Positions 2,010 to 56,182 of a stretch of 64,000 nucleotides of DNA are shown piece by piece. Below the pieces are notes generated by a model, which was not told where the DNA came from, searched no databases, and worked only from the letters and a program-made list of their open reading frames with translations. Position 1 is the stretch's first letter. Each line of letters opens with the position of its first letter. A program made the translations under genes and the position numbers. Source of the stretch: Blastocatellia bacterium (lineage in GTDB: Bacteria; Acidobacteriota; Blastocatellia; HR10; J050); assembly GCA_026985075.1 (NCBI GenBank), contig JALSQX010000053.1, positions 92,773 through 156,772 of the forward strand. Reading direction: 5' to 3'.

Positions 2010-3488
2010 CTATCGAATGCCAAACAACGATAGAAAGAATTCCGTCCGCTGAGCGAACGTGAGTCGCGGCGGATCGACATTCCAAATATGAATGAGCGCA
2101 TAGAACACCCACACCCCAGCGATGCGTTTGATGCGAAGGCACATCGCCCATGGACCATCCTGCGGCCAGGTCCGACCACGACGCTTCCGCTCACGAAGTA
2201 AAGAGACATAAATGCCCAGGGCGAGCAGCAACGAATAAAAAATCCGCGGACACAACAACGACCACGCTCCAGTCAATCCCGCGGCGGCGAGATGCCCAAT
2301 ATCGCGCAGCACGTGATAATAGATATTACCCGCGAATGCCGCGGCCATCGTCGCCGCGAATAATCGAAGTCCGGGTCGCGTCTTGAAGTACGACGCATAA
2401 GCTGGAAAGAAGAAGAATTCGACCAGGAGCTCTTTGAAGTAGTAATAGAACCGATTCCAGAATTCCACCACCGACTGTGACAACAACGGTTTATACGTAT
2501 TGCGGAAAACATGGAATCCGAGCAACCGCAAACAGCCGATGATGACATGTCCAGTGATGGCCAGCTTCAGCGTTCGCGTGATCAACTCGACGAACACGCT
2601 CGCCCACGCCCATATCGGCGACGGATGGAACGTCGTCTCCCCACCGATTAACGCGCTCAATCGAGGGAGGTCCAGATGATACCCGGAGAGGGCGGGAGGC
2701 ATGCCATCGACCGGGAGGCCATGCACGAATCCGTTGATCATCCACAAAGCCCCTTGCCAGAACCAGGCCAGGATGAGGAGCTTCAGGCCCGCCAATTGAG
2801 CGCGAGCGCGATCGGCCATCGTCGCCGCCATGGTTTGCTGAAGGTAATCGTAGCCCTTTCCATAAGGAACGTGTGTGCCCCCATAGGCGGGCCAAAGATA
2901 AAAGAAGTGTTCTCGAAAGCGACTGTCTGCCGCTCGACGGCGCTGACCAGCCAGGAGCATATATCCGCAGCGCCAGGCGAGAAAAGGAAAACAGGTCGCC
3001 GCCAACCAGACGCCGGTGGCCATGGGATGACCATGGCGGGGGATGGCCAACAGCCCGACAAGGACTATCCAGATGATCGCATGGAGAACGAAGAGAGGAT
3101 GCCGTTGCACCAGGCGCGGAAGCTGCCCGTATGATCGGGCCGCTCGATAACAGGCATAGAGCCCCCCTCCCACCAGGACCATAGCCAGCAGGAGGGCGGG
3201 CCACCCGTCGGACGCCCAGCCAGGATCGAGGCGTTGCCTCTCGGCCACCGCCCGGTAGAACACATACACGCCGCCGAGCGAGAGGATCAGATGTCGGTGC
3301 GCCGGAAAGCCAATGACCAGCGCCAACAGCGGAGAGATGAGCGCGGCGGCGGCCCGATCGTAGAAAAAGAGGAGCAGCGTGGCCGCCGACCAGACAGCGG
3401 CCTGTCCCCAGGGAGTGGAAACAACCGCGACGAGGCGCTCATCCTCATGAAGTTGTCGGCTCAACGTGAGGAGGGCCGTTGGCGTCAT
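2010..3488 (-). CDS. MBOAT-family (DltB/AlgI-like) polytopic membrane O-acyltransferase-like protein with non-canonical signature
   Basis: About 10 predicted TM helices. The segment LLGFHVFRNTYKPLLSQSVVEFWNRFYYYFKELLVEFFFFPAY aligns position-by-position with the MBOAT signature FN.PY.A.S..EFWRRWHISLS.WLRDY.YIPLGG. A downstream GNIYYH matches the invariant-His region. Start ATG overlaps the upstream carrier-protein stop (ATGA). Confidence 0.6.
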   Translation of the reverse strand: MTPTALLTLSRQLHEDERLVAVVSTPWGQAAVWSAATLLLFFYDRAAAALISPLLALVIGFPAHRHLILSLGGVYVFYRAVAERQRLDPGWASDGWPALLLAMVLVGGGLYACYRAARSYGQLPRLVQRHPLFVLHAIIWIVLVGLLAIPRHGHPMATGVWLAATCFPFLAWRCGYMLLAGQRRRAADSRFREHFFYLWPAYGGTHVPYGKGYDYLQQTMAATMADRARAQLAGLKLLILAWFWQGALWMINGFVHGLPVDGMPPALSGYHLDLPRLSALIGGETTFHPSPIWAWASVFVELITRTLKLAITGHVIIGCLRLLGFHVFRNTYKPLLSQSVVEFWNRFYYYFKELLVEFFFFPAYASYFKTRPGLRLFAATMAAAFAGNIYYHVLRDIGHLAAAGLTGAWSLLCPRIFYSLLLALGIYVSLLRERKRRGRTWPQDGPWAMCLRIKRIAGVWVFYALIHIWNVDPPRLTFAQRTEFFLSLFGIR

Positions 3489-3739
3489 CTCGTCTCGCGC
3501 TCGATCAAGTCCAGGATATGGGCAATGGAATTCAGTTGACCGGGATCGATCCCCCGCTCCGAGAAGTCGATACCATACTCCTGCTCGAGGTATCCCACGA
3601 TCTCCAACACAGCCAGAGAATCGATGAGCCCCGATGTGATGAGTCCCTGATGTTCATCGGTAATATCCAGAGGCCGGTCGGGTCTTCGAATCGTTTGCAA
3701 GAACTGGATCAATTTTGCCTTATGCGCGGCTCGATTCAT
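3485..3739 (-). CDS. Acyl/peptidyl carrier protein (DltC/ACP-like, phosphopantetheine attachment site)
   Basis: 84-aa product MNRAAHKAKLIQFLQ...ITSGLIDSLAVLEIVGYLEQEYGIDF with the carrier-protein DSL(A/V) Ser motif. ATG at 3739-3737 overlaps the ligase stop (ATGA). The track ORF's upstream extension to 3901 is not used. Confidence 0.7.
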   Translation of the reverse strand: MNRAAHKAKLIQFLQTIRRPDRPLDITDEHQGLITSGLIDSLAVLEIVGYLEQEYGIDFSERGIDPGQLNSIAHILDLIERETR

Positions 3740-5265
3740 TGTTTTTCGCTGAACAGGTGATGCACGTCGACCGGCTTCAATCGGGCGCACATGTCCGCCA
3801 CCTGGGCGCGATTGATCTTTCCTCGGGAAGTCCGCGGGATGGCCTCCAGCAGATACCAGCGCACGGGCATCTGATGGTCTGCCAGATGTTGCTTCAGCCA
3901 ATAGTAGAGTCGACGAAGAGTCTCGCGGCGAGAGTCACTCAGTACGACCGCCAGACCAACGTTCTGACCGTACAGTGGATCATCATAGCCGAAGCAGCAC
4001 ACGTCGATGGTCGCGGTGAATCGTTCAACAACGGCGTCGATGTCCCCAGGGTAGATCTTCATTCCGCCCTTGTTGATCTCCTCGCGCTCGCGCCCCCTCA
4101 GATAGAGCCAGCCACGATCATCAATGAGGCCAATGTCCCCGGTCATGAACCATCCCTGACTCACCACCTGACGGGTCAGATCATCGCGTTCCCAATAGCC
4201 CCTCATCAGGGCCGGCGTATTGAGCCAAACGTAGCCTGGCTCATTCGGCGCACAGCCGGGCACCGCCCATGGCGGCTCGTCGGTGGATCGCGACTTCAGG
4301 ATCTTCACCAGCGCGCCCCACGGCTCCCCGATGAGCCCATCGGCCGGCGCGAACTCCGGCATCGTCGTCCCAGCTACCCAACTCCCCGTCTCGGTGATCC
4401 CATAAGCATTGAACACATTCCTGGTGCCGGTCCATTCCTGGATTCGCTCCCAGAGGTGAGCTGAAAGAGGAGCTGATCCGCAAAACACGCGCTCCAGCGT
4501 CCCGGCCCGAGGGGGTCTCGCCGTCTTGAGAGCCAGCCGCCAGAGAGCGGGCACTGAGGACATGAACGTGATCTCAAACTCATCCAGCAACGCGCCCAGC
4601 TGCATGACGAGATCGGCGCGGAACGGCGGCAAGATGAACAACTCCTGACCCCAGAGCCAGGGATATAAGCAGTTGCAAATCAATCCGTGACCAAAATGCG
4701 TCGGGAGCAAGCAGAGCGTGCGACGATAGGCCTTCAGGCCGAGATGCTGACGCAGTGTGACCCATCGCGCGCGCAACGAACGATGGGTGTGAACGACGCC
4801 TTTCGGCTGCCCAGTCGTTCCCGAGGTGAACAGGATCAGCGCATCACGATCGAGCGACGGGTGCCGGCCAGAGAGCGAAGAAGCCTCCTCCGCTGGCAAG
4901 GCGGATTCGGTCGCTTCCAACAGCTTCACGCCCAATGCGGCCAGACGGCTGACGAGCGCCTCGTCGATCGCCTCCACGGCCAAGGCAAATTGTGGACGGG
5001 CGGCGCGAGCGAGCGTTTCGATCTCAAAGGGCGTCAGCCGAATATCGATGGGAATGGCGCACCCTCCCAGACTCCACACGGCCAACAAATCGACGAAGAA
5101 CTCCAGTCGATTCCCGTAGAGGAACAATACGCGATCCCCGGCTCGCATTCCCTGATGTCGATACAAGGCCAGACGTCGAAGAAGCTGCCGCTGGATCTCG
5201 GGTGGCTCCCATCGTCGCCCGGTCAATGGTTCGGTGAGGGCGCCAACGTGCATGTCGACGAACAT
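3736..5265 (-). CDS. AMP-dependent synthetase/ligase (adenylation enzyme; DltA / acyl-ACP synthetase-like)
   Basis: Adenylation core motifs LFTSGTTGQPKGVVHTHRSL (A3) and YGITETG, plus a C-terminal SRGKINR (A10-like Lys). 509 aa. Confidence 0.85.
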   Translation of the reverse strand: MFVDMHVGALTEPLTGRRWEPPEIQRQLLRRLALYRHQGMRAGDRVLFLYGNRLEFFVDLLAVWSLGGCAIPIDIRLTPFEIETLARAARPQFALAVEAIDEALVSRLAALGVKLLEATESALPAEEASSLSGRHPSLDRDALILFTSGTTGQPKGVVHTHRSLRARWVTLRQHLGLKAYRRTLCLLPTHFGHGLICNCLYPWLWGQELFILPPFRADLVMQLGALLDEFEITFMSSVPALWRLALKTARPPRAGTLERVFCGSAPLSAHLWERIQEWTGTRNVFNAYGITETGSWVAGTTMPEFAPADGLIGEPWGALVKILKSRSTDEPPWAVPGCAPNEPGYVWLNTPALMRGYWERDDLTRQVVSQGWFMTGDIGLIDDRGWLYLRGREREEINKGGMKIYPGDIDAVVERFTATIDVCCFGYDDPLYGQNVGLAVVLSDSRRETLRRLYYWLKQHLADHQMPVRWYLLEAIPRTSRGKINRAQVADMCARLKPVDVHHLFSEKQ

Positions 5266-5378
5266 CTTCTCCTCCTTTCGCCCGCCCGAATGATGGCCTC
5301 GACGTGGCGGCTGATCATCTTACTCGCTCAGAAGCGCAGACTCAATGGTCCACCCGCCACCTCCCGTGCTGGACGGGC

Positions 5379-7373
5379 TCACGGTCGGCCAGAAACACCC
5401 TGGGCAGAAGATGTGCCAGCGAGACCGCGCTGGTGATAATATCGAATCCACTGCTCCTGCAAGCGGTGAAAGGCCTCCAGTCGCTGACGATACGCCCGAT
5501 CACTCCGAAGACTGAGCCGGGTCCGCTCATCGAACGCCAACCATCTGGGTGAAAAATATTCCCGTTCCGCCACCATGTTCCTCATGAAGCTGCCCTCTTT
5601 GAACAGAAAGCCATCGCTGCCGGTAATATCCCATCCGAGCAGGAACGTGTATCGCCGACTCAGGCGCTCATCCCAAACGGGCAGTCCCTGATGCATGTAG
5701 TCCGTATGGGGTATGCCCAGCAACGCCAGGATGCTGGGCGTGATGTCAATATGTGAGGTCACCTCGTTCACCGAGCGTCTCCGGGAGAAAACGCTGGGAG
5801 CATATATGACGAGGGGGACGTGATATGTTTCGTCGTTCATATACACAGGATCGAAATGCGGACTCTCGATTTGCGATCGAAATCCATGATCGCTGGTCAC
5901 CACGAGAATCGTTCGCTCCCACACCCCGATATCGGCTAATCGGCGGGTGAACGTTTCGAGCAGCCGATCCCTCAAGACAGACAAGTTTTTCACGCGCCCT
6001 TCCCAGCTCCGAGCAGAGAACGGCTTATCCGTCACCCCGGAGACGTCATCGAATCGGAAATGACCCAACGATGGAGCGAGCACCACCAGGAAACGACGAT
6101 GGGCTTTCCAGAGCCGGGCGATCGCCTCGCTCGCCGCTCGATAGAGTCGCTTATCGATCTCGTAGCGGCGGGTGCTGCCGGACATTTGCCACAGAGGATC
6201 TTCCAGAGAGTCCGTCAGAAAGCTACGAAGGTTCCTGATCTGGTCAAACCCCAACTGGCTGATGAGGAACCGCTCCTTATTTCGGTTGCGCACGTCGCCG
6301 AAGAAAAGAGAGACGTATCCCCATCGGGCCAGAATCTGCGGCAAGGCGTCGGCGCGATAGCGCCCGTATCTCCAAGCGATGTTCTGTGACCCCGGCAACG
6401 GATACGTGGAGGTGAGAATGGAAAATAAAGCCCGGATCGAGCGCGGAGAGGTCGTATAGTGGTGTTCGCCCACAATCGCCCTCTCGCTCAGCCGCTTCAA
6501 TCCGGGGAGATAGGCCAAATCGGGCGAAGCATACCGATAGGGAGCCGTCTCCCAAATGACGATGATGACATTCGCTCCGGGAACGACCGACGACCACTTT
6601 CGGCCCTCCGGTCGCTCTGACTCGTCCTGATGATCGAGCACGAGCTGTTCGTACCGCGCCTTCAAGATCTCGGGAGGCGGCAATGGGCCGGACGTCGCCC
6701 GAGGCGCGCTTCGACTCGCTTCGTAGACCAACTGGAGCATCGATTTTTGATTCGCAGCCGTGCGCTCTTGCCACAATGACACGATGGCCGCCAGGAAGAT
6801 GATCCCGAGACTCGCTCCCCGAGCGACTGCGGCGAACCGAGAGCGGAGGAGAGCCCACCGTCGCTCCTCAGAGACGATGAGCAGCAGGAATGAGGAGGAA
6901 AACGCAAACAGCGTTCCCCCCACGAGCTTGGTCACTAACGAAGGGCTCACCGCGCCCCATACCGCATCCGGATAGCCGAAGAGCAGTTCCTGAAGCTGAT
7001 GAATCCGCTGCACCCCGAAATGACTCCCGAACTTCATAACGTCGATGCACTCGGCCAGAGCGAGGACATGGACGCACAACAAAACGCCCATCGCGCCTAA
7101 TAGTTTGAACCGAAAGAAAGCATCGGTTCGCACCAGAAGCCACGATAGCACAGCGATAGACGCGGCGATGAGAAGAACGTCCTCGGAGAAATATCGGAGG
7201 AAACGAATGGGATCACTCCGGCAAAGCGCCACCGCTATCCCCAGCAAAACCCAGAGAGGACGCCCTGGATGAGCGAATAAGCAGATGAATTTCAATCCGA
7301 GCTGAGCTAACGCATAAGGAAAGAACAGGAGCGAAAAGAGGGCCAACCACGGGCTTCGCCAATGTACAGGCAT
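5379..7373 (-). CDS. LtaS/MdoB-like sulfatase-family membrane transferase (phosphoglycerol/polyglycerol-phosphate transferase-like)
   Basis: N-terminal multi-TM domain followed by an alkaline-phosphatase-superfamily sulfatase domain (NVIIVIWETAPYRY..., VVTSDHGFR). ATG at 7373 is preceded by GAGGAG; the track ORF begins at GTG 7385. Confidence 0.75.
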   Translation of the reverse strand: MPVHWRSPWLALFSLLFFPYALAQLGLKFICLFAHPGRPLWVLLGIAVALCRSDPIRFLRYFSEDVLLIAASIAVLSWLLVRTDAFFRFKLLGAMGVLLCVHVLALAECIDVMKFGSHFGVQRIHQLQELLFGYPDAVWGAVSPSLVTKLVGGTLFAFSSSFLLLIVSEERRWALLRSRFAAVARGASLGIIFLAAIVSLWQERTAANQKSMLQLVYEASRSAPRATSGPLPPPEILKARYEQLVLDHQDESERPEGRKWSSVVPGANVIIVIWETAPYRYASPDLAYLPGLKRLSERAIVGEHHYTTSPRSIRALFSILTSTYPLPGSQNIAWRYGRYRADALPQILARWGYVSLFFGDVRNRNKERFLISQLGFDQIRNLRSFLTDSLEDPLWQMSGSTRRYEIDKRLYRAASEAIARLWKAHRRFLVVLAPSLGHFRFDDVSGVTDKPFSARSWEGRVKNLSVLRDRLLETFTRRLADIGVWERTILVVTSDHGFRSQIESPHFDPVYMNDETYHVPLVIYAPSVFSRRRSVNEVTSHIDITPSILALLGIPHTDYMHQGLPVWDERLSRRYTFLLGWDITGSDGFLFKEGSFMRNMVAEREYFSPRWLAFDERTRLSLRSDRAYRQRLEAFHRLQEQWIRYYHQRGLAGTSSAQGVSGRP

Positions 7374-7910
7374 ACATCCAAGCACTCCTCACCGCCAGAG
7401 AAAATCTCCTCGTCGGCGGTCACTCTCGATCCGAGGGGACTGTTTCCTATATCATCCTCATCGAGAAAAATCAAGAGCAAGGCGTCGTTCTTTGAGGAGG
7501 CGCTAAGAGCAGTGCGAGAAGGAACGCCGAGGCAGAGCCGTAAAGAGAGGTTCTTTTGAAGTTTCCCGCCTTTCACAACTCCTGTCCCGTTGATGCCGCA
7601 CCGGCGAGGTCGTCGATGAGTTAGCGAAAGAGTGGGCAGAGTGGTCGTATACCCTTTGGCAACCCCCTCGGAGTTCCGAGAGCGTGATGAAGCAGGTCAC
7701 TTCATAGAGAGGAGAACCCATCTCCGCGGAACGAGAGATACCGCGATGGCCGATGGAATGAACGGGCCACCAGCGGCCAATGCCCCCTCTCCACGAGCAG
7801 AAGACCATCGGCCGACTGGTGGTCGTGTCGCATGCGATCATCCTCGGCCCGTATGGCGGTTCGTCATACGCCATTGGCCGACGGATGGTCGTGGCCCATC
7901 TGGACTGTCG

Positions 7911-8309
7911 TCAGAATGCCCCATCGAGGATGTCCAAGGCTCCTTCGGGCAATGGTTCGACCACTTTCACCTCGATGCTCCCCGTCTGGAAGGGAGAGTT
8001 CGGTTCCAATTCCACGACCAGCCGCCCTCGGCCGTTCTTCATGGTGATCGTGCCCATTTCGACGTCCTGCTCTCCATCGTTGACCACGACCATGAATTGT
8101 GTGCCATCGGGCACATCGACCCGCACGCGCACCCCAAACAGAGGCGTCCCCAAGAGCTGCCCGCGAGCCGCCTGACCGATGGCGTTCATCTGCTGGCCCG
8201 CGTCAGTGGGTACAAGCACGATCTGCTCGATGCTCGTCTTCTGAGCGACAGCGACGACGCTTCCAATAGGCACGACGAGAGCGAGTAAGGCGAACGCGAT
8301 CTTGTTCAT
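7911..8309 (-). CDS. Hypothetical small secreted protein (signal peptide)
   Basis: ATG at 8309 is preceded by AGGAGG. N-terminus MNKIAFALLALVVPIGSVVAVAQ is signal-peptide-like. No family recognised. Confidence 0.5.
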   Translation of the reverse strand: MNKIAFALLALVVPIGSVVAVAQKTSIEQIVLVPTDAGQQMNAIGQAARGQLLGTPLFGVRVRVDVPDGTQFMVVVNDGEQDVEMGTITMKNGRGRLVVELEPNSPFQTGSIEVKVVEPLPEGALDILDGAF

Positions 8310-8703
8310 CTGTCCCTCCTCATCAGAATTTTGGAGAGCCAAGAGCAGCAAGGCCTCGTCATCAACCGCCTCGATCCTCTCACTCCTTCGGGCGGTTATA
8401 TGGAGAACTGCATTGACGCAGCATGCTCTTTGCTCTCGCCCCATTCGTAAGCAAGGCTCGTGCCACTTGACATGAAATCGTCTCGCTGGGCCGTTTGTAG
8501 CGGAACATCAACAGGTTATCGCCGGAAAGGCGATCGTCCTTGAGGCGCGATGTGGCGCGAGACGTTTCTGATCTGAAACAATCGTTCGCTTCACCCTGTG
8601 AAAGAGAGATGTCCTCAAGAGTCCATTCGCCAGGCCACGCGTGAGTTGAGAGCACTGAATGAGGCCATGCGGATCAGTCCTCGAGCGACTCGGTCGTGAA
8701 CAA

Positions 8704-14499: not shown

Positions 14500-15918
14500 T
14501 CAAAAATTGTACTGCACATAAATGTTCAGGCGATGATCCACGCCGCGATCAAGGCCTTTGTAATCGGTCGTCCAGTGAAGATAGTCGATACCCACGATGA
14601 ATGGGCCGCCGGGATAGAATCGATTGACGATGTACCATGCCCGATTCTTGATGCGACCCTGAACCGGGATGTCACGGTCCACGGGATCATCGACCGTGTA
14701 CCCCGGGAAAATCCAGTAGAATCGACTCAGCTTGATCCCCAATTCAGCCCAGCCCCCCCGACTTCTGATCTCCGTTCCCAGGACCGTATTCAGGCCCTGG
14801 CCCACGCCGCCCCGGAAGTCGCTCAGATTGCGCCCGAACCAACCTTCCCCTCGCAGCATCACGCGCTCGTGAAGAGCGAGGATGTAGTCGACATTGAGCG
14901 ACTGACTCCGAAAGCTCTTCCGACCGGCAACGGGCGTCACCATTTCCTCCCATCCATAGTGCCCGGAGACGCCCACGCTCAATCGACTGTTAGCATTCCA
15001 CAACGCATGGGCATAGCCAAGACGCGCCTGGAGATTCGGTTTGCGAGAGGTCTCTCCATCCCGAAAGCCGTCGCCGTCCAGGTCCTTACTATCAATGGCC
15101 CCCGTCAATCCGATCCCTCCGGCGAATGAGAATTGCCCACCACCGATATGGGGCTCGTAACTGAAACGAACCTGGGCTCGCCGATCGCCCAGATTCCCCG
15201 CATTCCACATCAACGTATCATTGTTCACCGTGGGATACAGGGGCGAAATGATGTCCCAGGTTTGCCCGCCGAGCAGGGAGAAGGCTCCCCAGGACACTTT
15301 CACATACGCATGCCGGGTCCGGAATCGCGGGCGCGATTCTCGTCCCCCATTCTGAAAATCGACTTCGAATTTTCCGGTGAGTCTTCCTCCACCGCCGATT
15401 TCTGGCCCCGAATAGTTGATGCCGATGCGCGTCAGCCGCGGATGCATGGTGAAGTTCCCCTTCCTGTTCCCCACGCCGAGACGTGGATCAGCCGAGCGCA
15501 CGCGAAAAATCGTCTGAGCGAAGTCAGGGCGTGCACTATCGGCGATCAGATCCAACCGCAGGAATCCGTAGAACTGGAGTCGGCTTCCCTTCGTGCTCAA
15601 CTCTTTCCACTTGACCGTCCCTCGGCCGGCGCCTTGAGGGGCACTCGTGAGCCCTCCCTTCCCTTGCCCACCGCGGTTCCCGCTCCTTTTCGTTTCACCA
15701 CCCAGCTCCCCTGCCTCTTGAACCGTTCTCGCGGCGAGTTGCTGCTTCAATGCCTGTAGCATCTGGAGGATGGCTCGATTCTGCGCTTCGAGTTCGCGAA
15801 CTCTCTGCCTCAGTGCTTCCAGCTCAGCGTCGCGCCGTTCACCTTGCGCTCGAACTCCCCAGGTCATTCCCAGTACCACTCCCACCAGACAAACAACGCG
15901 CATCCCAATCTTCAGCAT
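14500..15918 (-). CDS. Outer-membrane beta-barrel porin with an N-terminal periplasmic coiled coil (OprO/P- or DcaP-like architecture)
   Basis: Signal peptide, then a heptad-rich segment (ELEALRQRVRELEAQNRAILQMLQALKQQLAA). Alternating amphipathic beta-strands follow, with a C-terminal ...NIYVQYNF (terminal Phe). Start uncertain between 15903, 15918 and 15933. Confidence 0.6.
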   Translation of the reverse strand: MLKIGMRVVCLVGVVLGMTWGVRAQGERRDAELEALRQRVRELEAQNRAILQMLQALKQQLAARTVQEAGELGGETKRSGNRGGQGKGGLTSAPQGAGRGTVKWKELSTKGSRLQFYGFLRLDLIADSARPDFAQTIFRVRSADPRLGVGNRKGNFTMHPRLTRIGINYSGPEIGGGGRLTGKFEVDFQNGGRESRPRFRTRHAYVKVSWGAFSLLGGQTWDIISPLYPTVNNDTLMWNAGNLGDRRAQVRFSYEPHIGGGQFSFAGGIGLTGAIDSKDLDGDGFRDGETSRKPNLQARLGYAHALWNANSRLSVGVSGHYGWEEMVTPVAGRKSFRSQSLNVDYILALHERVMLRGEGWFGRNLSDFRGGVGQGLNTVLGTEIRSRGGWAELGIKLSRFYWIFPGYTVDDPVDRDIPVQGRIKNRAWYIVNRFYPGGPFIVGIDYLHWTTDYKGLDRGVDHRLNIYVQYNF

Positions 15919-16091
15919 CGTTGATATCCCCACACCGTTTTCGAATTACAAAGGAACCTTACCCTACCACGAATTTTTCTATAGGTCAAATTGGTATTTT
16001 CGATGGGTTACTGTCCGAGCCATTCAAAAAAGCAATACGCGGCGGCACACTGACCGAGGACGCCGGGATCGGCACCCCAATGAAGGCCGCT

Positions 16092-53272: not shown

Positions 53273-54088
53273 ATGAGTGCGGCAGAGATGAACCAACGTG
53301 AGCACCTCGACACATGCTCTGGTTCAGCTCGGGATCTATTTTACTTCCGTATCAAGGGCGTCCTCGCCCGAATATTCAGTCGCCTGCGCTGTGATGTCGA
53401 AGGGCTGGAATATGTGCCTCAGAGCGGCCCGGCTATCCTGGTGATGAACCACACCGGCTGGGAAGAGATTCTCTGCGCCATCCTGATCGTACCCCGTCCG
53501 ATGAGGATTATCGGTATTCGGGAATTGATGTATCTCGATGATCCCGTGGGACGGGCGCGCATTTTTGATTCGGCGTATGGACGGAGCTTCGGCCCCGTTC
53601 GTCGTGGACTCACTGTTCTGCTGGGAAACGCGCTCGGTGGAGTGGTGCGCCGCCGGCTGCGGGAGTTCGGGTTCATTCCGGCGCGCGTATTCACACCGGC
53701 GTGGCCGCCGCTTCTGGGGAGCAACGGATGGCGCGAGACTGTAGCGGCGCTGGCGGCTGGCGAGCTCGTTCTGCTCTTTCCCGAAGGGGGGTACAAGCGA
53801 GATGGGGTGATGCGACCGTTCAAACCCGGTCTGGGGATGCTGGTGCGCTGGCTCAGCCGCCGTCATCTGGATGTTCCTATCGTGCCGATTGCACAACGGA
53901 CGGCGGGATGCGTTTCCTGGACGCTGGGCCATCGATACACGCCGCGACTCGTTTTCGGTCCGCCACTCACATTCACGTTCAATGGGGAGAACCGGCGGAC
54001 ATTCGATGAACGTGTGGCGCGCACGGTTCAGGATCACATCGATGCTCTTCTCCGTCGCGCCTGGCCCGATGCGCCGTCACAGACATAA
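53273..54088 (+). CDS. Lysophospholipid acyltransferase (PlsC/LPLAT)-family protein with HX4E variant motif
   Basis: Motif I NHTGWEE (HX4E rather than HX4D) and motif III FPEGG. Confidence 0.55.
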   Translation: MSAAEMNQREHLDTCSGSARDLFYFRIKGVLARIFSRLRCDVEGLEYVPQSGPAILVMNHTGWEEILCAILIVPRPMRIIGIRELMYLDDPVGRARIFDSAYGRSFGPVRRGLTVLLGNALGGVVRRRLREFGFIPARVFTPAWPPLLGSNGWRETVAALAAGELVLLFPEGGYKRDGVMRPFKPGLGMLVRWLSRRHLDVPIVPIAQRTAGCVSWTLGHRYTPRLVFGPPLTFTFNGENRRTFDERVARTVQDHIDALLRRAWPDAPSQT

Positions 54089-54182
54089 CGTTCGGCCGGA
54101 TTTGATCGAAGAGCTTTGGTTTTGCCCATGATGCGCTTTAGGCGTATATTTGCGTTACTGAGGTCGTGTATGTAATCGTTAG

Positions 54183-55114
54183 ATGGCATTGAAGCTGGTA
54201 GAGGCAGCTTATATGAGGCGTCCCAAATACAAGTGCCAAGATTTTCTAAATGAGCTTGCTGTGGGCCAAGCGTATGGTATTTTTGTTGATGATACTGGCG
54301 CTCCTGGTCTCACTGATGCACCAGCAAACTTCCATCCCAACCGGAAATCTTGGGTTGCCGTTCCACCATGGCACATGCCTGAAGTTCTTAAGCAGCTTCC
54401 TCGTGCACTATAGGAACTAGAAAAGCTGACAGGGGCCGGAGAGCTTCATTTTGCGGACATTTATGCAGGCCGAAGGGAATTCAGGGAAGTTGATCTCCGG
54501 GTTCGACGTGCGCTGTTTGAGTTTATGGCACATATTTTCTCAGTATATCAATTCCCTATCATTGTTCAGACCTTTGATCCGAAAACGTTATCTTATCTTC
54601 ACTCCCGTAGCCAAGGAGAATTGCCGGACCGCCTTCCGCCCTTTGATTTTACCAAGCCAGAAGACGCAGCCTTTTTTTCTTGCTGATCCGATTGAGGTTG
54701 TTTATGGAGCAAACGCCGGAGTATCCTAAAGTAAAAGCGCATGTATTCGTTGACGAAGGTTGGAAAAGCAATGGTGTTGCAATTAAAATCCCAATATTCG
54801 AAGATGTGTTCAATGATGGATTGGTCTGTTTTTGCCGGAGTTCAACTATCTTGCCTATCCAGCTTGCAGATTTTGCTGCATTCGCTCTAAATCGCACTCA
54901 GCTCGTATGTGGGCGCAACAAACGAAGCCCGTTGGATATGCATTTACTTGAGATTTTATCCAAAGTTGCGAATAACTATGTGAATATTGAGAAAAAGATT
55001 GTTTCATTAGTAGAAGAAGGTCCAATGATTACCTTGGTTGGTACGCGTCCCACGGACCTTATTAATCGCCATCTAACGCCCGCTGCAGTCAACCCGCCTC
55101 CGCCAGCGCTCTAG
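54183..55114 (+). pseudogene. Disrupted gene: one reading frame interrupted by an in-frame TAG (54411) and a frameshift at a T7 run (54672-54678); possible DUF3800-like product
   Basis: Frame 0 is open and protein-like from 54183 to 54686 apart from a single amber codon. A +1 T in the T7 tract would fuse it to the frame-2 ORF 54680-55114. Motifs IFVDDTG / VFVDEGW and IQLADFAAFA suggest the DES...QxxD signature of DUF3800. Confidence 0.4.
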
Positions 55115-55216
55115 CGGGCGGCCGAGCTGGTCGTCAGACCGTTGCTCGCAGGCTCTTCTGCGGATAGAATAACATTAGAATAATACCTGTGCTGTGTAAC
55201 AAGAGTGGACAAGGAG

Positions 55217-55444
55217 ATGAAGAGCAAAATGCAAGCTTATCGAGTCGAAACCACAGTTACCCAAGACGGTACTCTCATCATCAAAGGAGTTCCCTTTCGG
55301 GCAGGAACGAAGGTGGAAGTCATCATCCTCAGCCACTTTCGTAAAGCTGCAAAGGAAGTACGCTATCCCTTGCGAGGTAAGCCGATTCGGTATCTGGCGC
55401 CATTCGAGAGTGTTGCCGAGGATGAGTGGGAAGCACTGTCATGA
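55217..55444 (+). CDS. vapB: VapB-like antitoxin (AbrB/SpoVT-like swapped-hairpin candidate)
   Basis: Small acidic C-terminal tail (SVAEDEWEALS). The stop overlaps the vapC start (ATGA). Start uncertain among GTG 55205, ATG 55217 and ATG 55229. Confidence 0.5.
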   Translation: MKSKMQAYRVETTVTQDGTLIIKGVPFRAGTKVEVIILSHFRKAAKEVRYPLRGKPIRYLAPFESVAEDEWEALS

Positions 55445-55833
55445 TCATGCTTGACACACATATTTGGGTTTGGTGGGTGCATGGAGATTCACATCTTACC
55501 CAAACTCAAATGGAAGCAATTGCTGCACACGAGGAGGATGTGATTGGTGTGAGTGCGATTTCATGTTGGGAAATAGCTAAACTAGTCGAGTATGGTCGTC
55601 TGGAATTGCCCTGTCCACTGGAGGAATGGTTTGAACAAGCGTTGAGTTATCCCGGGATGCACTTACTCCCATTAACGCCGGAAATAGCCATTGAGTCAAC
55701 GCGGCTGCCGGGAAAATTTCATCGTGACCCTGTGGATCAAATCATCGTGGCCACGGCCAGGGTGTCCAATTGCCCACTTGTGACTTCGGATCAGAGGATT
55801 TTGAACTACCCGCACGTTGTAACGATAAGGTAA
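55441..55833 (+). CDS. vapC: PIN-domain ribonuclease toxin VapC
   Basis: MIMLDTHIWVW (Asp4 equivalent), CWEIAKL (Glu), and a third acidic residue in VTSDQRIL. Classic 4-nt overlap with the antitoxin. Confidence 0.8.
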   Translation: MIMLDTHIWVWWVHGDSHLTQTQMEAIAAHEEDVIGVSAISCWEIAKLVEYGRLELPCPLEEWFEQALSYPGMHLLPLTPEIAIESTRLPGKFHRDPVDQIIVATARVSNCPLVTSDQRILNYPHVVTIR

Positions 55834-56182
55834 TCTGCCTAACATCGCGTGTAGCAGACTCACTGTGCTCAGTTGCCTGACTCCCCTGCTGGCACGCCAC
55901 TGATGCTCACAGCAGGCGGAGCAGCCCCTACTATGGATTGAGAAACGTGGTTGCCAATCATTGAGCTTCCAGGCTTTAAGCCTAGAAGCTGGTGAATTAT
56001 TCCTGCGGCCGAAAAATCGATGGTTCGATGAAGAAAAACAACCACGCCCGCCTGACTACCGCAATGGGACATGCCATTGGACGGTTAGCCGAGGTTTTGA
56101 ACTCAATTTCTCCTCTTCACTCTCATCAAGCGATTCGAAGACGAACTACGTAGCCGCGTCAGTCATCAATGGGGATTCGCTT

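Follow-up and report, generated by a model that had tools for sequence, protein, structure and literature searches.

The 64-kb window considered here, a stretch of contig JALSQX010000053.1 from a Blastocatellia bacterium, carries four consecutive minus-strand genes that encode an LtaS-like phosphotransferase, an adenylating ligase of the ANL superfamily, a small carrier protein and a membrane protein with a predicted MBOAT (membrane-bound O-acyltransferase) fold. Together these genes, referred to below as the cassette, are candidates for a carrier-dependent acylation system. A preliminary description of the same DNA had placed the four genes in series, with two ATGA overlaps between them, and had read them as a complete LtaS plus Dlt-like module of an outer-membrane bacterium. 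The gene series and both overlaps are confirmed, while several parts of the functional reading have to be revised. The features of the locus are as follows.

2010-3488, minus strand: MBOAT-fold membrane-protein gene, 492 aa, assigned by predicted fold and profile-profile alignment
3485-3739, minus strand: carrier-protein gene, 84 aa, Pfam PP-binding
3736-5265, minus strand: ANL ligase gene, 509 aa, Pfam AMP-binding and AMP-binding_C
5266-5378, minus strand: intergenic spacer between the LtaS-like gene and the ligase gene, 113 nt, holding the ligase ribosome-binding site
5379-7385, minus strand: LtaS-like phosphotransferase gene, 668 aa from a GTG start

According to the open reading frame (ORF) coordinates and translations, the start codon of the carrier gene (3739-3737) lies over the stop codon of the ligase gene (3738-3736) in an ATGA overlap at 3736-3739, and the start codon of the membrane-protein gene (3488-3486) lies over the carrier stop codon (3487-3485) in a second one at 3485-3488. 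The carrier gene is thus translationally coupled to both of its neighbours through these overlaps. The gap between the LtaS-like gene and the ligase gene is short, as had been described, and measures 113 nt rather than the 114 first given. An AGGAGG Shine-Dalgarno sequence stands 5-6 nt ahead of the ligase ATG (5265), and a scan of the spacer for promoters and terminators gave nothing convincing, with counts no higher than in shuffled sequence. Public gene calls start the LtaS-like gene four codons downstream of the GTG, which gives a protein of 664 aa, and the ATG at 7373 is likely to be the true start.

The MBOAT-fold membrane protein

Searches of the 492-aa protein against Pfam, NCBIfam and the sequences of the PDB returned zero matches. 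This extends to the family around it: no match to MBOAT models was obtained with 58 family members even at E ≤ 10, the curated MBOAT hidden Markov models (PF03062 and PF13813) do not recognise the protein, and the family profile searched against the PDB found no MBOAT. A weak DltB match on one family member (E 0.005) stands alone. Whereas Pfam models do identify Sulfatase, AMP-binding and PP-binding domains in the other three products, the MBOAT-like nature of the fourth, also part of the preliminary description, is upheld only by predicted fold and by hhalign. An AlphaFold2 model built with 58 homologues has high confidence (predicted local distance difference test, pLDDT, 89.7; predicted template-modelling score, pTM, 0.89), and a Foldseek search with it returned MBOATs throughout the top 10, with DltB first; LPCAT3, MBOAT7, DGAT1 and ACAT are further significant structural matches. 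In hhalign, the family profile aligned to a canonical MBOAT profile of eight sequences (three DltB and five of AlgI/PatA type) with a probability of 89.5% and an E of 2e-6 over 168 columns, placing residues 172-364 of the window protein on the MBOAT core. The protein is accordingly modelled as an aberrant member of the MBOAT fold. With DltB as the closest solved structure, the earlier proposal that ligase, carrier and membrane protein follow the logic of DltA, DltC and DltB stands.

The aberrant character of the protein becomes apparent from its conserved residues, the equivalences of which were taken from the hhalign alignment and not from superposed coordinates. The family shares with canonical MBOATs the invariant residues N330, P334, F343, W344 and R346, and G318 is near-invariant (Gly in 53 of 58 members and Ala in the rest). 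The universal catalytic histidine of MBOATs, His336 in DltB and His315 in PatA, is aligned with Tyr348, so that "EFWNRF-Y348" stands against "EFWNRW-H". Position 348 is occupied by Tyr in 53 of the 58 members, by His in two, by Phe in two and by Leu in one. Two of the closer relatives of the window protein, P0003 and P0008 (51-56% identity), carry His at this site and read "FWNRFHYYF". Four different residues, His, Tyr, Phe and Leu, are thus seen at this position in the family, and as far as the alignment can tell neither a histidine nor a hydroxyl group is needed there.

In total, about 43 columns are invariant, and those with polar or charged residues in transmembrane (TM) regions include H14, R65, R173, H194, K211, H314, N330, R346, Y350, K352, E353, N388 and S429. 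Seven of these, H14, H194, H314, Y350, K352, E353 and N388, are polar positions that have newly become invariant in this family. The C-terminus is conserved as "RTxFFLSLFG" and contains no Tyr; S487 is present in 50 of 58 members (86%).

Bacterial MBOAT pathways make use of an acyl-shuttle Tyr in a C-terminal FxYxxF motif, located either on the MBOAT itself or on DltX, together with a partner protein of the SGNH family, and DltB is the sole characterised MBOAT that is fed by a carrier protein (PMC12148441). The shuttle motif is not found on the MBOAT-fold protein, and no small ORF ending in F.Y..F that could represent a DltX-like microprotein recurs near the cassette, be it in the window or among the related loci described below. 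DltD, already reported as missing from the 64-kb window, was not found there or in loci L001-L085 by tblastn with the Listeria protein, which is a search at the sequence level. Members of the SGNH family are likewise not among the recurrent neighbours of the cassette. Without the universal His, the Tyr shuttle, DltX and an SGNH partner, the locus can no longer be called a complete LtaS plus Dlt-like module, and judged by its residues the acyltransferase appears chemically rewired relative to all characterised MBOATs.

The family is large. A search of 1.84 billion representatives at E ≤ 1e-3 gave 1113 clusters at 50% identity, and more than 800 homologues, all from environmental genomes, are named "hypothetical" and carry no Pfam domains. 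A plasmid collection held no relative. The 492-aa protein thus founds a family that has no model in Pfam or NCBIfam.

Ligase, carrier and phosphotransferase

The ligase matches Pfam AMP-binding (4e-60) and AMP-binding_C and contains the A3 motif "TSGTTGQPKG" as well as "PRTSRGKINR" in the region of the A10 Lys. Long-chain fatty-acid-CoA ligase, FadD7 and MenE head its NCBIfam matches, each far under its cutoff. The top PDB matches are a fatty-acyl-CoA synthase, an oxalate-CoA ligase, FadD13 and a malonyl-CoA synthetase, with FadD10 also matched, and the best matches among annotated plasmid genes are mostly malonyl-CoA synthases. DltA appears among the top matches of neither NCBIfam nor the PDB. 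No equivalog cutoff is reached, and by sequence the ligase can be placed no more closely than in the acyl-CoA-synthetase class of the ANL superfamily.

In DltA, in keeping with what is established for adenylation domains, the Asp of the motif "FSFDLS" binds the alpha-amino group of the substrate. In the alignment this Asp falls on the Gly of "THFGHG" in the window ligase, and the motif "PTHFGHGL" with that Gly is kept in 59 orthologues. Overall similarity points the same way, as the ligase scores 163 bits (28% identity) against the malonyl-CoA synthase MatB of S. meliloti and 77 bits (23%) against the DltA of Listeria. Because a conserved Gly occupies the DltA Asp position, D-Ala or Gly would be very unlikely as the loaded acid, and the aminoacylation function considered in the preliminary description is not supported: the ligase resembles acyl-CoA synthetases and not DltA, an outcome that the preliminary description had itself listed as counting against its reading. 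A small or dicarboxylic organic acid is a more likely cargo than an amino acid.

The carrier only just exceeds the Pfam PP-binding cutoff (21.5 bits against 20.8). In an alignment with DltC, the serine that bears the phosphopantetheine there (motif GLLDSM) corresponds to Ser41 of the window carrier (motif GLIDSL), and the "DS" pair is at least 95% conserved among 37 homologues, which bears out the earlier identification of this serine. Weak NCBIfam matches to several acyl carrier proteins (ACPs) and to DltC (16 bits against a cutoff of 68) are all far under cutoff. The top match is the ornithine-lipid ACP with 35 bits against a cutoff of 130; the ornithine-lipid OlsHI pathway was rejected on the basis of this score and because its GH3-like enzyme and alpha/beta hydrolase are absent here.

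The LtaS-like protein matches Pfam Sulfatase (3e-29) and is predicted to consist of about 5-6 N-terminal TM segments followed by a catalytic domain of about 460 aa. A Lys/Arg-rich loop ahead of the last TM segment places this domain, by the positive-inside distribution, in the periplasm. The metal and nucleophile set is kept (E279, Ser316, which is Thr in most homologues, D411, H442, D499 and H500), and the formylglycine motif CxPxR does not occur in the protein. A TM anchor followed by an alkaline-phosphatase-type domain with such a metal and nucleophile site is also found in EptA, OpgB and BcsG, so these features do not discriminate between the families. Sequence searches of the PDB with the subfamily of the window protein gave VP1736, LtaP and LtaS at about 1e-11 to 1e-12 and no match to EptA; the alignments to LtaP and LtaS span the full catalytic domain. 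A homologue with 79% identity is named "LTA synthase family protein" at NCBI. "LtaS-like" is therefore a fair family label. On the other hand, the 25.6 bits that the protein reaches with the NCBIfam LtaS equivalog model fall far short of the cutoff of 970. Nothing in the sequence points to polymerisation, and the role of polymer synthase once suggested for this protein is not supported. Homologue searches for structure prediction gave three and then 31 mostly partial matches, and the resulting AlphaFold2 model (pLDDT 51) was not used.

Conservation and genomic context

A scan of one genome per species yielded 202 relatives of the membrane protein, from which 79 loci were kept. These loci are contigs of metagenome-assembled genomes (MAGs) on which gene calling was crude, and the calls were checked against public ones in eight contigs; independent gene calls with Pfam tags confirmed the carrier and ligase next to the membrane protein in eight contigs. 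The 79 loci belong to at least 11 phyla, all of them diderm lineages, and differ in flanking genes and in gene order. They include Acidobacteriota, Binatia, several Desulfobacterota lineages, Myxococcota, Magnetococcales and other Alphaproteobacteria, Nitrospirales, Gemmatimonadota, Verrucomicrobiota, Spirochaetota and Methylomirabilota as well as many Beta- and Gammaproteobacteria (Accumulibacter, Propionivibrio, Rhodoferax, Methylophilaceae and Steroidobacteraceae). In most loci, tblastn places a carrier and an orthologous ligase (51-64% identical) next to the membrane protein, in the order ligase-carrier-MBOAT or MBOAT-ligase-carrier; in the close Acidobacteria relative L007, the ligase is 88% identical. 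Such an arrangement goes far beyond what chance would produce, as dozens of unrelated genomes contain the gene set among differing flanking genes. Literature searches brought up no account of a cassette of this kind. The neighbours of the membrane-protein gene were counted in the 43 fully flanked loci, defined as those with at least 4 kb on both sides of this gene.

Carrier: 40 of 43 loci
Orthologous ligase: 32 of 43 loci
TM-sulfatase-family gene: 19 of 43 loci (about 44%)
PrpB-like lyase: 14 of 43 loci (about 33%)

The core of the cassette is therefore the carrier, the MBOAT-like protein and the ligase, the joint conservation of which in relatives supports the preliminary description, while the phosphotransferase, first described as an integral part, is a frequent accessory that is either fast-diverging or repeatedly recruited. 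Where a TM-sulfatase gene is present, it lies at most 300 nt away in 28 of 34 cases, with a median gap of 57 nt. These partner proteins are only 15-24% identical to the window protein and form 16 sequence clusters. They keep the catalytic set E/T(S)/D/H/DH, and their joint profile fits VP1736, EptC, EptA and MCR-1 better than LtaS. A search for an alternative partner in loci without a sulfatase-like gene found unrelated genes only (GT4, M20 peptidase, DUF362, GGDEF and transposase), and genes for fatty-acid or lipid biosynthesis are not recurrent in the neighbourhoods of the cassette.

Two groups of loci depart from the common layout. In nine loci of Magnetococcales (L012, L019, L021, L023, L024, L038, L049, L057 and L065) the carrier and the MBOAT-like protein are kept and the orthologous ligase is absent. 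Four of them, L019, L038, L049 and L065, encode a distant AMP-binding enzyme (22-26% identity) about 0.5 kb past the end of the membrane-protein gene, and the part of it that aligns begins about 2 kb from the start of that gene; in L012, L021, L023, L024 and L057, tblastn found no ligase. The large ORFs around the Magnetococcales loci have no Pfam matches. The second group, L003, L004 and L017 from Deltaproteobacteria RIFCSPLOWO2_12_FULL_60_19, carries four tandem MBOAT-like paralogues of 458-465 aa (L003:6607-12281). Only one AMP-ligase, a divergent one, and one carrier precede them, and one TM-sulfatase gene comes after them, which suggests that one loading module supplies enzymes of several acceptor specificities.

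A PrpB-like lyase of 280 aa, a member of the PEP-mutase/isocitrate-lyase superfamily, is found inside or directly against the operon in 18 loci and is 58-78% identical across loci and phyla. Three examples are listed here.

L009:9370-10206: PrpB-like lyase
L095:6372-7214: PrpB-like lyase
L051:6823-7641: PrpB-like lyase, between the carrier and the membrane protein

The lyase has the motif "EDQxRPRxCGH", which is that of the lyase branch with its catalytic Cys, and in sequence it comes closest to PrpB, petal death protein, 2,3-dimethylmalate lyase and oxaloacetate acetylhydrolase. The products of these enzymes are small carboxylic acids, among them succinate, propionate, acetate and oxalate. 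Together with the similarity of the ligase to MatB and oxalate-CoA ligase, this suggests that the cargo may be a small or dicarboxylic acid. Phosphonate biosynthesis was considered for this neighbour, which Pfam labels PEP_mutase, and rejected: PEP mutases have the signature EDKxxxxxNS, whereas the neighbour has EDQ..CGH and matches lyases.

In the window itself, the cassette has a convergent hybrid histidine kinase gene on one side; the other side holds two small ORFs that could not be annotated as well as the genes for TsaD and MtnA. Immediately upstream of the cassette and in its orientation lie ORFs at 7503-7874 (minus strand, 123 aa) and 7911-8444 (minus strand, 177 aa), both without a Pfam match. 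The gene at 14500-15933 (minus strand) encodes a protein of 477 aa without a Pfam match that has an N-terminal signal peptide, a coiled-coil stretch and a beta-rich body and ends in "YVQYNF"; from its sequence, it looks like an unclassified porin-like protein of the outer membrane with a C-terminal beta-signal. A diderm host is well supported, in agreement with the preliminary description, both by this outer-membrane-type protein and by the fact that the locus has its closest relatives in Acidobacteria MAGs.

At some distance from the cassette, a low-GC island at 54000-56100 stands out with 45-52% GC in surroundings of about 59-60%. Within it, a gene pair at 55205-55444 (79 aa) and 55426-55833 (135 aa) with a 19-nt overlap resembles, by eye, a VapB/VapC (PIN-domain) toxin-antitoxin system and was probably acquired horizontally. 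An ORF at 53273-54088 (plus strand, 271 aa), the end of which falls about 90 nt within the island, has an "NHTGWEE" motif (HxxxxD/E-like) and resembles, again by eye, a lysophospholipid acyltransferase of the PlsC type.

Proposed acyl relay, alternatives and known systems

The reading we favour, with middling confidence, is that the locus may encode a carrier-dependent trans-membrane acylation system, a Dlt-like relay with a rewired MBOAT and a non-amino organic acid as its cargo. It is drawn from the genes alone, that is from their content, coupling and synteny and from fold, remote homology and residue conservation in their products, and the mechanism that follows is one we infer from them. 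In a first step, suggested by family membership and by the conserved and translationally coupled gene order, the ligase would adenylate a carboxylic acid without an alpha-amino group in the cytoplasm and thioesterify it onto the phosphopantetheine arm at Ser41 of the carrier. In a second step, to which the fold points, the acyl-carrier would dock at the cytoplasmic face of the MBOAT-fold protein, comparable to DltC on DltB, and the acyl group would move through this protein until it reaches an acceptor located within the membrane or on its periplasmic face. In a third step, suggested by gene adjacency and predicted topology, the LtaS-like enzyme would use its metal-activated Ser/Thr nucleophile to move a phospho-headgroup from a phospholipid onto the same target, thereby either creating an acceptor hydroxyl or amine or co-decorating the target. 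The trans-membrane geometry of the relay is proposed because the sole recurrent partner is predicted to be catalytically periplasmic, while the ligase and the carrier are cytoplasmic.

Since there is no canonical His, no Tyr shuttle and no SGNH partner, transfer would probably occur directly to a membrane-associated acceptor. The chemistry is presumably carried out by H14, H194, H314, Y350, K352 and E353, all of them putative in this role. A more specific version can be put forward only tentatively: in diderm bacteria of many phyla, a His-less enzyme of the MBOAT fold may accept the acyl group of a small (di)carboxylic acid from its dedicated carrier and attach it, with neither a Tyr shuttle nor an SGNH partner, to phosphoglycerol or phosphoethanolamine set by a rapidly diversifying LtaS/EptA-type transferase, the acid being made by the PrpB-like lyase of the operon in a third of the loci.

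Several observations weigh against the proposed relay. The substrate of the ligase is judged from best matches at about 28-30% identity, which is a weak guide, and the top NCBIfam matches of the ligase are fatty-acid ligases. There is no PrpB-like lyase in this window. The LtaS-like partner is absent from 56% of the fully flanked loci and is non-orthologous across loci, so its role may vary. Finally, the loss of the canonical catalytic His leaves catalysis by the 492-aa protein putative.

The strongest alternative, plausible but less likely in our view, is lipid remodelling, in which the ligase would be a fatty-acyl-AMP/ACP ligase that charges the carrier with a long-chain or unusual fatty acid and the MBOAT, in the manner of the eukaryotic lipid MBOATs, would acylate a membrane lipid directly; the acceptor could be a (glyco)lipid bearing phosphoglycerol or phosphoethanolamine from the LtaS/EptA-like enzyme. 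The long-chain and FadD-type models that head the NCBIfam list of the ligase, the FadD13 and FadD10 structures among its PDB matches and the ornithine-lipid ACP as top match of the carrier would all fit such a pathway, as would the structural matches of the membrane protein to LPCAT3, MBOAT7, DGAT1 and ACAT, and direct transfer to a lipid would suit the lack of an SGNH partner and a Tyr shuttle. However, the matches of ligase and carrier are all far under the family cutoffs, and MatB and oxalate-CoA ligases score equal to the fatty-acid ligases. In addition, the recurrent PrpB-like lyase yields small acids and not fatty acids, and genes of lipid biosynthesis are missing from the recurrent neighbours.

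It is improbable that the MBOAT-fold protein is not an enzyme at all and serves as a scaffold, a channel or an acyl-carrier receptor for another protein that performs the transfer. The replacement of the universal His at a position that tolerates Y, H, F and L would agree with this, as would the missing shuttle motif, but a non-enzymatic role does not readily account for some 43 invariant columns, many of them polar or charged inside TM regions, or for the retention of N, P, F, W and R of the MBOAT core. Moreover, no other conserved candidate transferase is encoded nearby.

Quite improbable, too, is aminoacylation of a lipoteichoic acid (LTA)-like polymer, in which the LtaS-like enzyme would make a teichoic-acid-like glycerophosphate polymer and ligase, carrier and MBOAT would esterify it with D-alanine or glycine as in the Dlt or AlmEFG systems. 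The three-component logic is indeed shared, DltB is the nearest structure, the full catalytic domain aligns to LtaP and LtaS, NCBI labels the homologue as LTA synthase family, and the GLIDSL of the carrier resembles its DltC counterpart. Against this stand a ligase that is unlike DltA in both score and amino-binding site, the failure of the NCBIfam DltA and DltB models to match and of the DltC and LtaS models to approach their cutoffs, and the lack of DltD, DltX or any SGNH protein. Elsewhere the partner enzymes have more in common with EptC, EptA and MCR-1, more than half of the loci have no such partner, and an AlmG-type acyltransferase belongs to a different fold family. That the four genes are adjacent by chance or stem from unrelated pathways, for example fatty-acid activation next to an unrelated sulfatase, is a notion that the unrelated housekeeping genes on the flanks (hybrid histidine kinase, TsaD and MtnA) might invite but that is effectively refuted by the ATGA overlaps and by the recurrence of the genes side by side in at least 11 phyla, where both their flanks and their order vary.

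The proposed relay can be set beside several known systems. The Dlt pathway of Firmicutes (DltA, DltC, DltB, DltX and DltD, with LtaS providing the acceptor) likewise encodes a ligase, a carrier with its Ser and an MBOAT-fold protein together, and here too an LtaS-type enzyme is genomically associated. In contrast to Dlt, the cassette has a ligase of the acyl-CoA-synthetase class without the amino-binding Asp, an MBOAT with Tyr in place of the catalytic His that MBOAT models do not recognise, and neither DltX, the FxYxxF motif nor a DltD/SGNH protein; its host is diderm, and its LtaS-like partner is facultative and non-orthologous. In Vibrio cholerae, AlmEFG is a Gram-negative example of a dedicated ligase that loads a dedicated carrier for envelope modification. 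AlmE is DltA-like and activates glycine, and AlmG belongs to the lysophospholipid-acyltransferase family (LpxL-like), acts at the cytoplasmic face and is not an MBOAT. Eukaryotic MBOATs (PORCN, HHAT, LPCAT3, MBOAT7, DGAT1 and ACAT) transfer directly, with no shuttle or SGNH protein, as is suggested here, but they use acyl-CoA donors, keep the catalytic His and have no detectable sequence similarity to the cassette protein.

MBOAT-SGNH systems for O-acetylation (PatA/PatB, AlgI/AlgJ/AlgX and WssH) also move acyl groups from the cytoplasm to the extracytoplasmic side in Gram-negative bacteria (PMC12148441). The 492-aa protein is similar to AlgI and PatA in length and has a conserved hydrophobic tail at its extreme C-terminus. 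PatA, AlgI and WssH, however, use acetyl-CoA (PMC12148441) where the cassette would use a carrier protein, and they need the invariant His, an auto-acylated C-terminal Tyr and handover to an SGNH protein, none of which is present in the cassette. In function, the closest parallel is offered by the osmoregulated periplasmic glucans (OPGs) of Proteobacteria, which are decorated with phosphoglycerol by OpgB, phosphoethanolamine by OpgE and succinyl groups by OpgC (PMC3818809). There, a transferase of the LtaS/EptA type is likewise combined with a polytopic acyltransferase that adds a small dicarboxylic acyl group. OpgC belongs to the AT3 family and is not an MBOAT, there is no dedicated ligase or carrier, and the cassette is linked neither to genes for OPG synthesis nor to other acceptor genes, so that this remains an analogy only. 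As read from the genes, the combination is an unusual one: a carrier-dependent MBOAT in diderm bacteria that has lost its His and has neither shuttle nor SGNH partner, a probable non-amino cargo and variable partners of the LtaS/EptA type, put together according to the logic of Dlt.

Carrier-fed transfer by an MBOAT has been established experimentally only for the D-alanylation of teichoic acids, and the cassette would extend this principle to outer-membrane bacteria of at least 11 phyla. The groups reached include wastewater organisms (Accumulibacter and Propionivibrio), Magnetococcales, Binatia, Acidobacteria and Nitrospirales. The family of the membrane protein is not annotated by any library, and an MBOAT that dispenses with both the universal His and the Tyr shuttle bears on the understanding of MBOAT catalysis in general. 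The cassette points to a chemical decoration of the diderm envelope. If this is true, Gram-negative bacteria would have their own equivalent of teichoic-acid tailoring, one that relies on different catalysis and probably follows the opposite charge logic.

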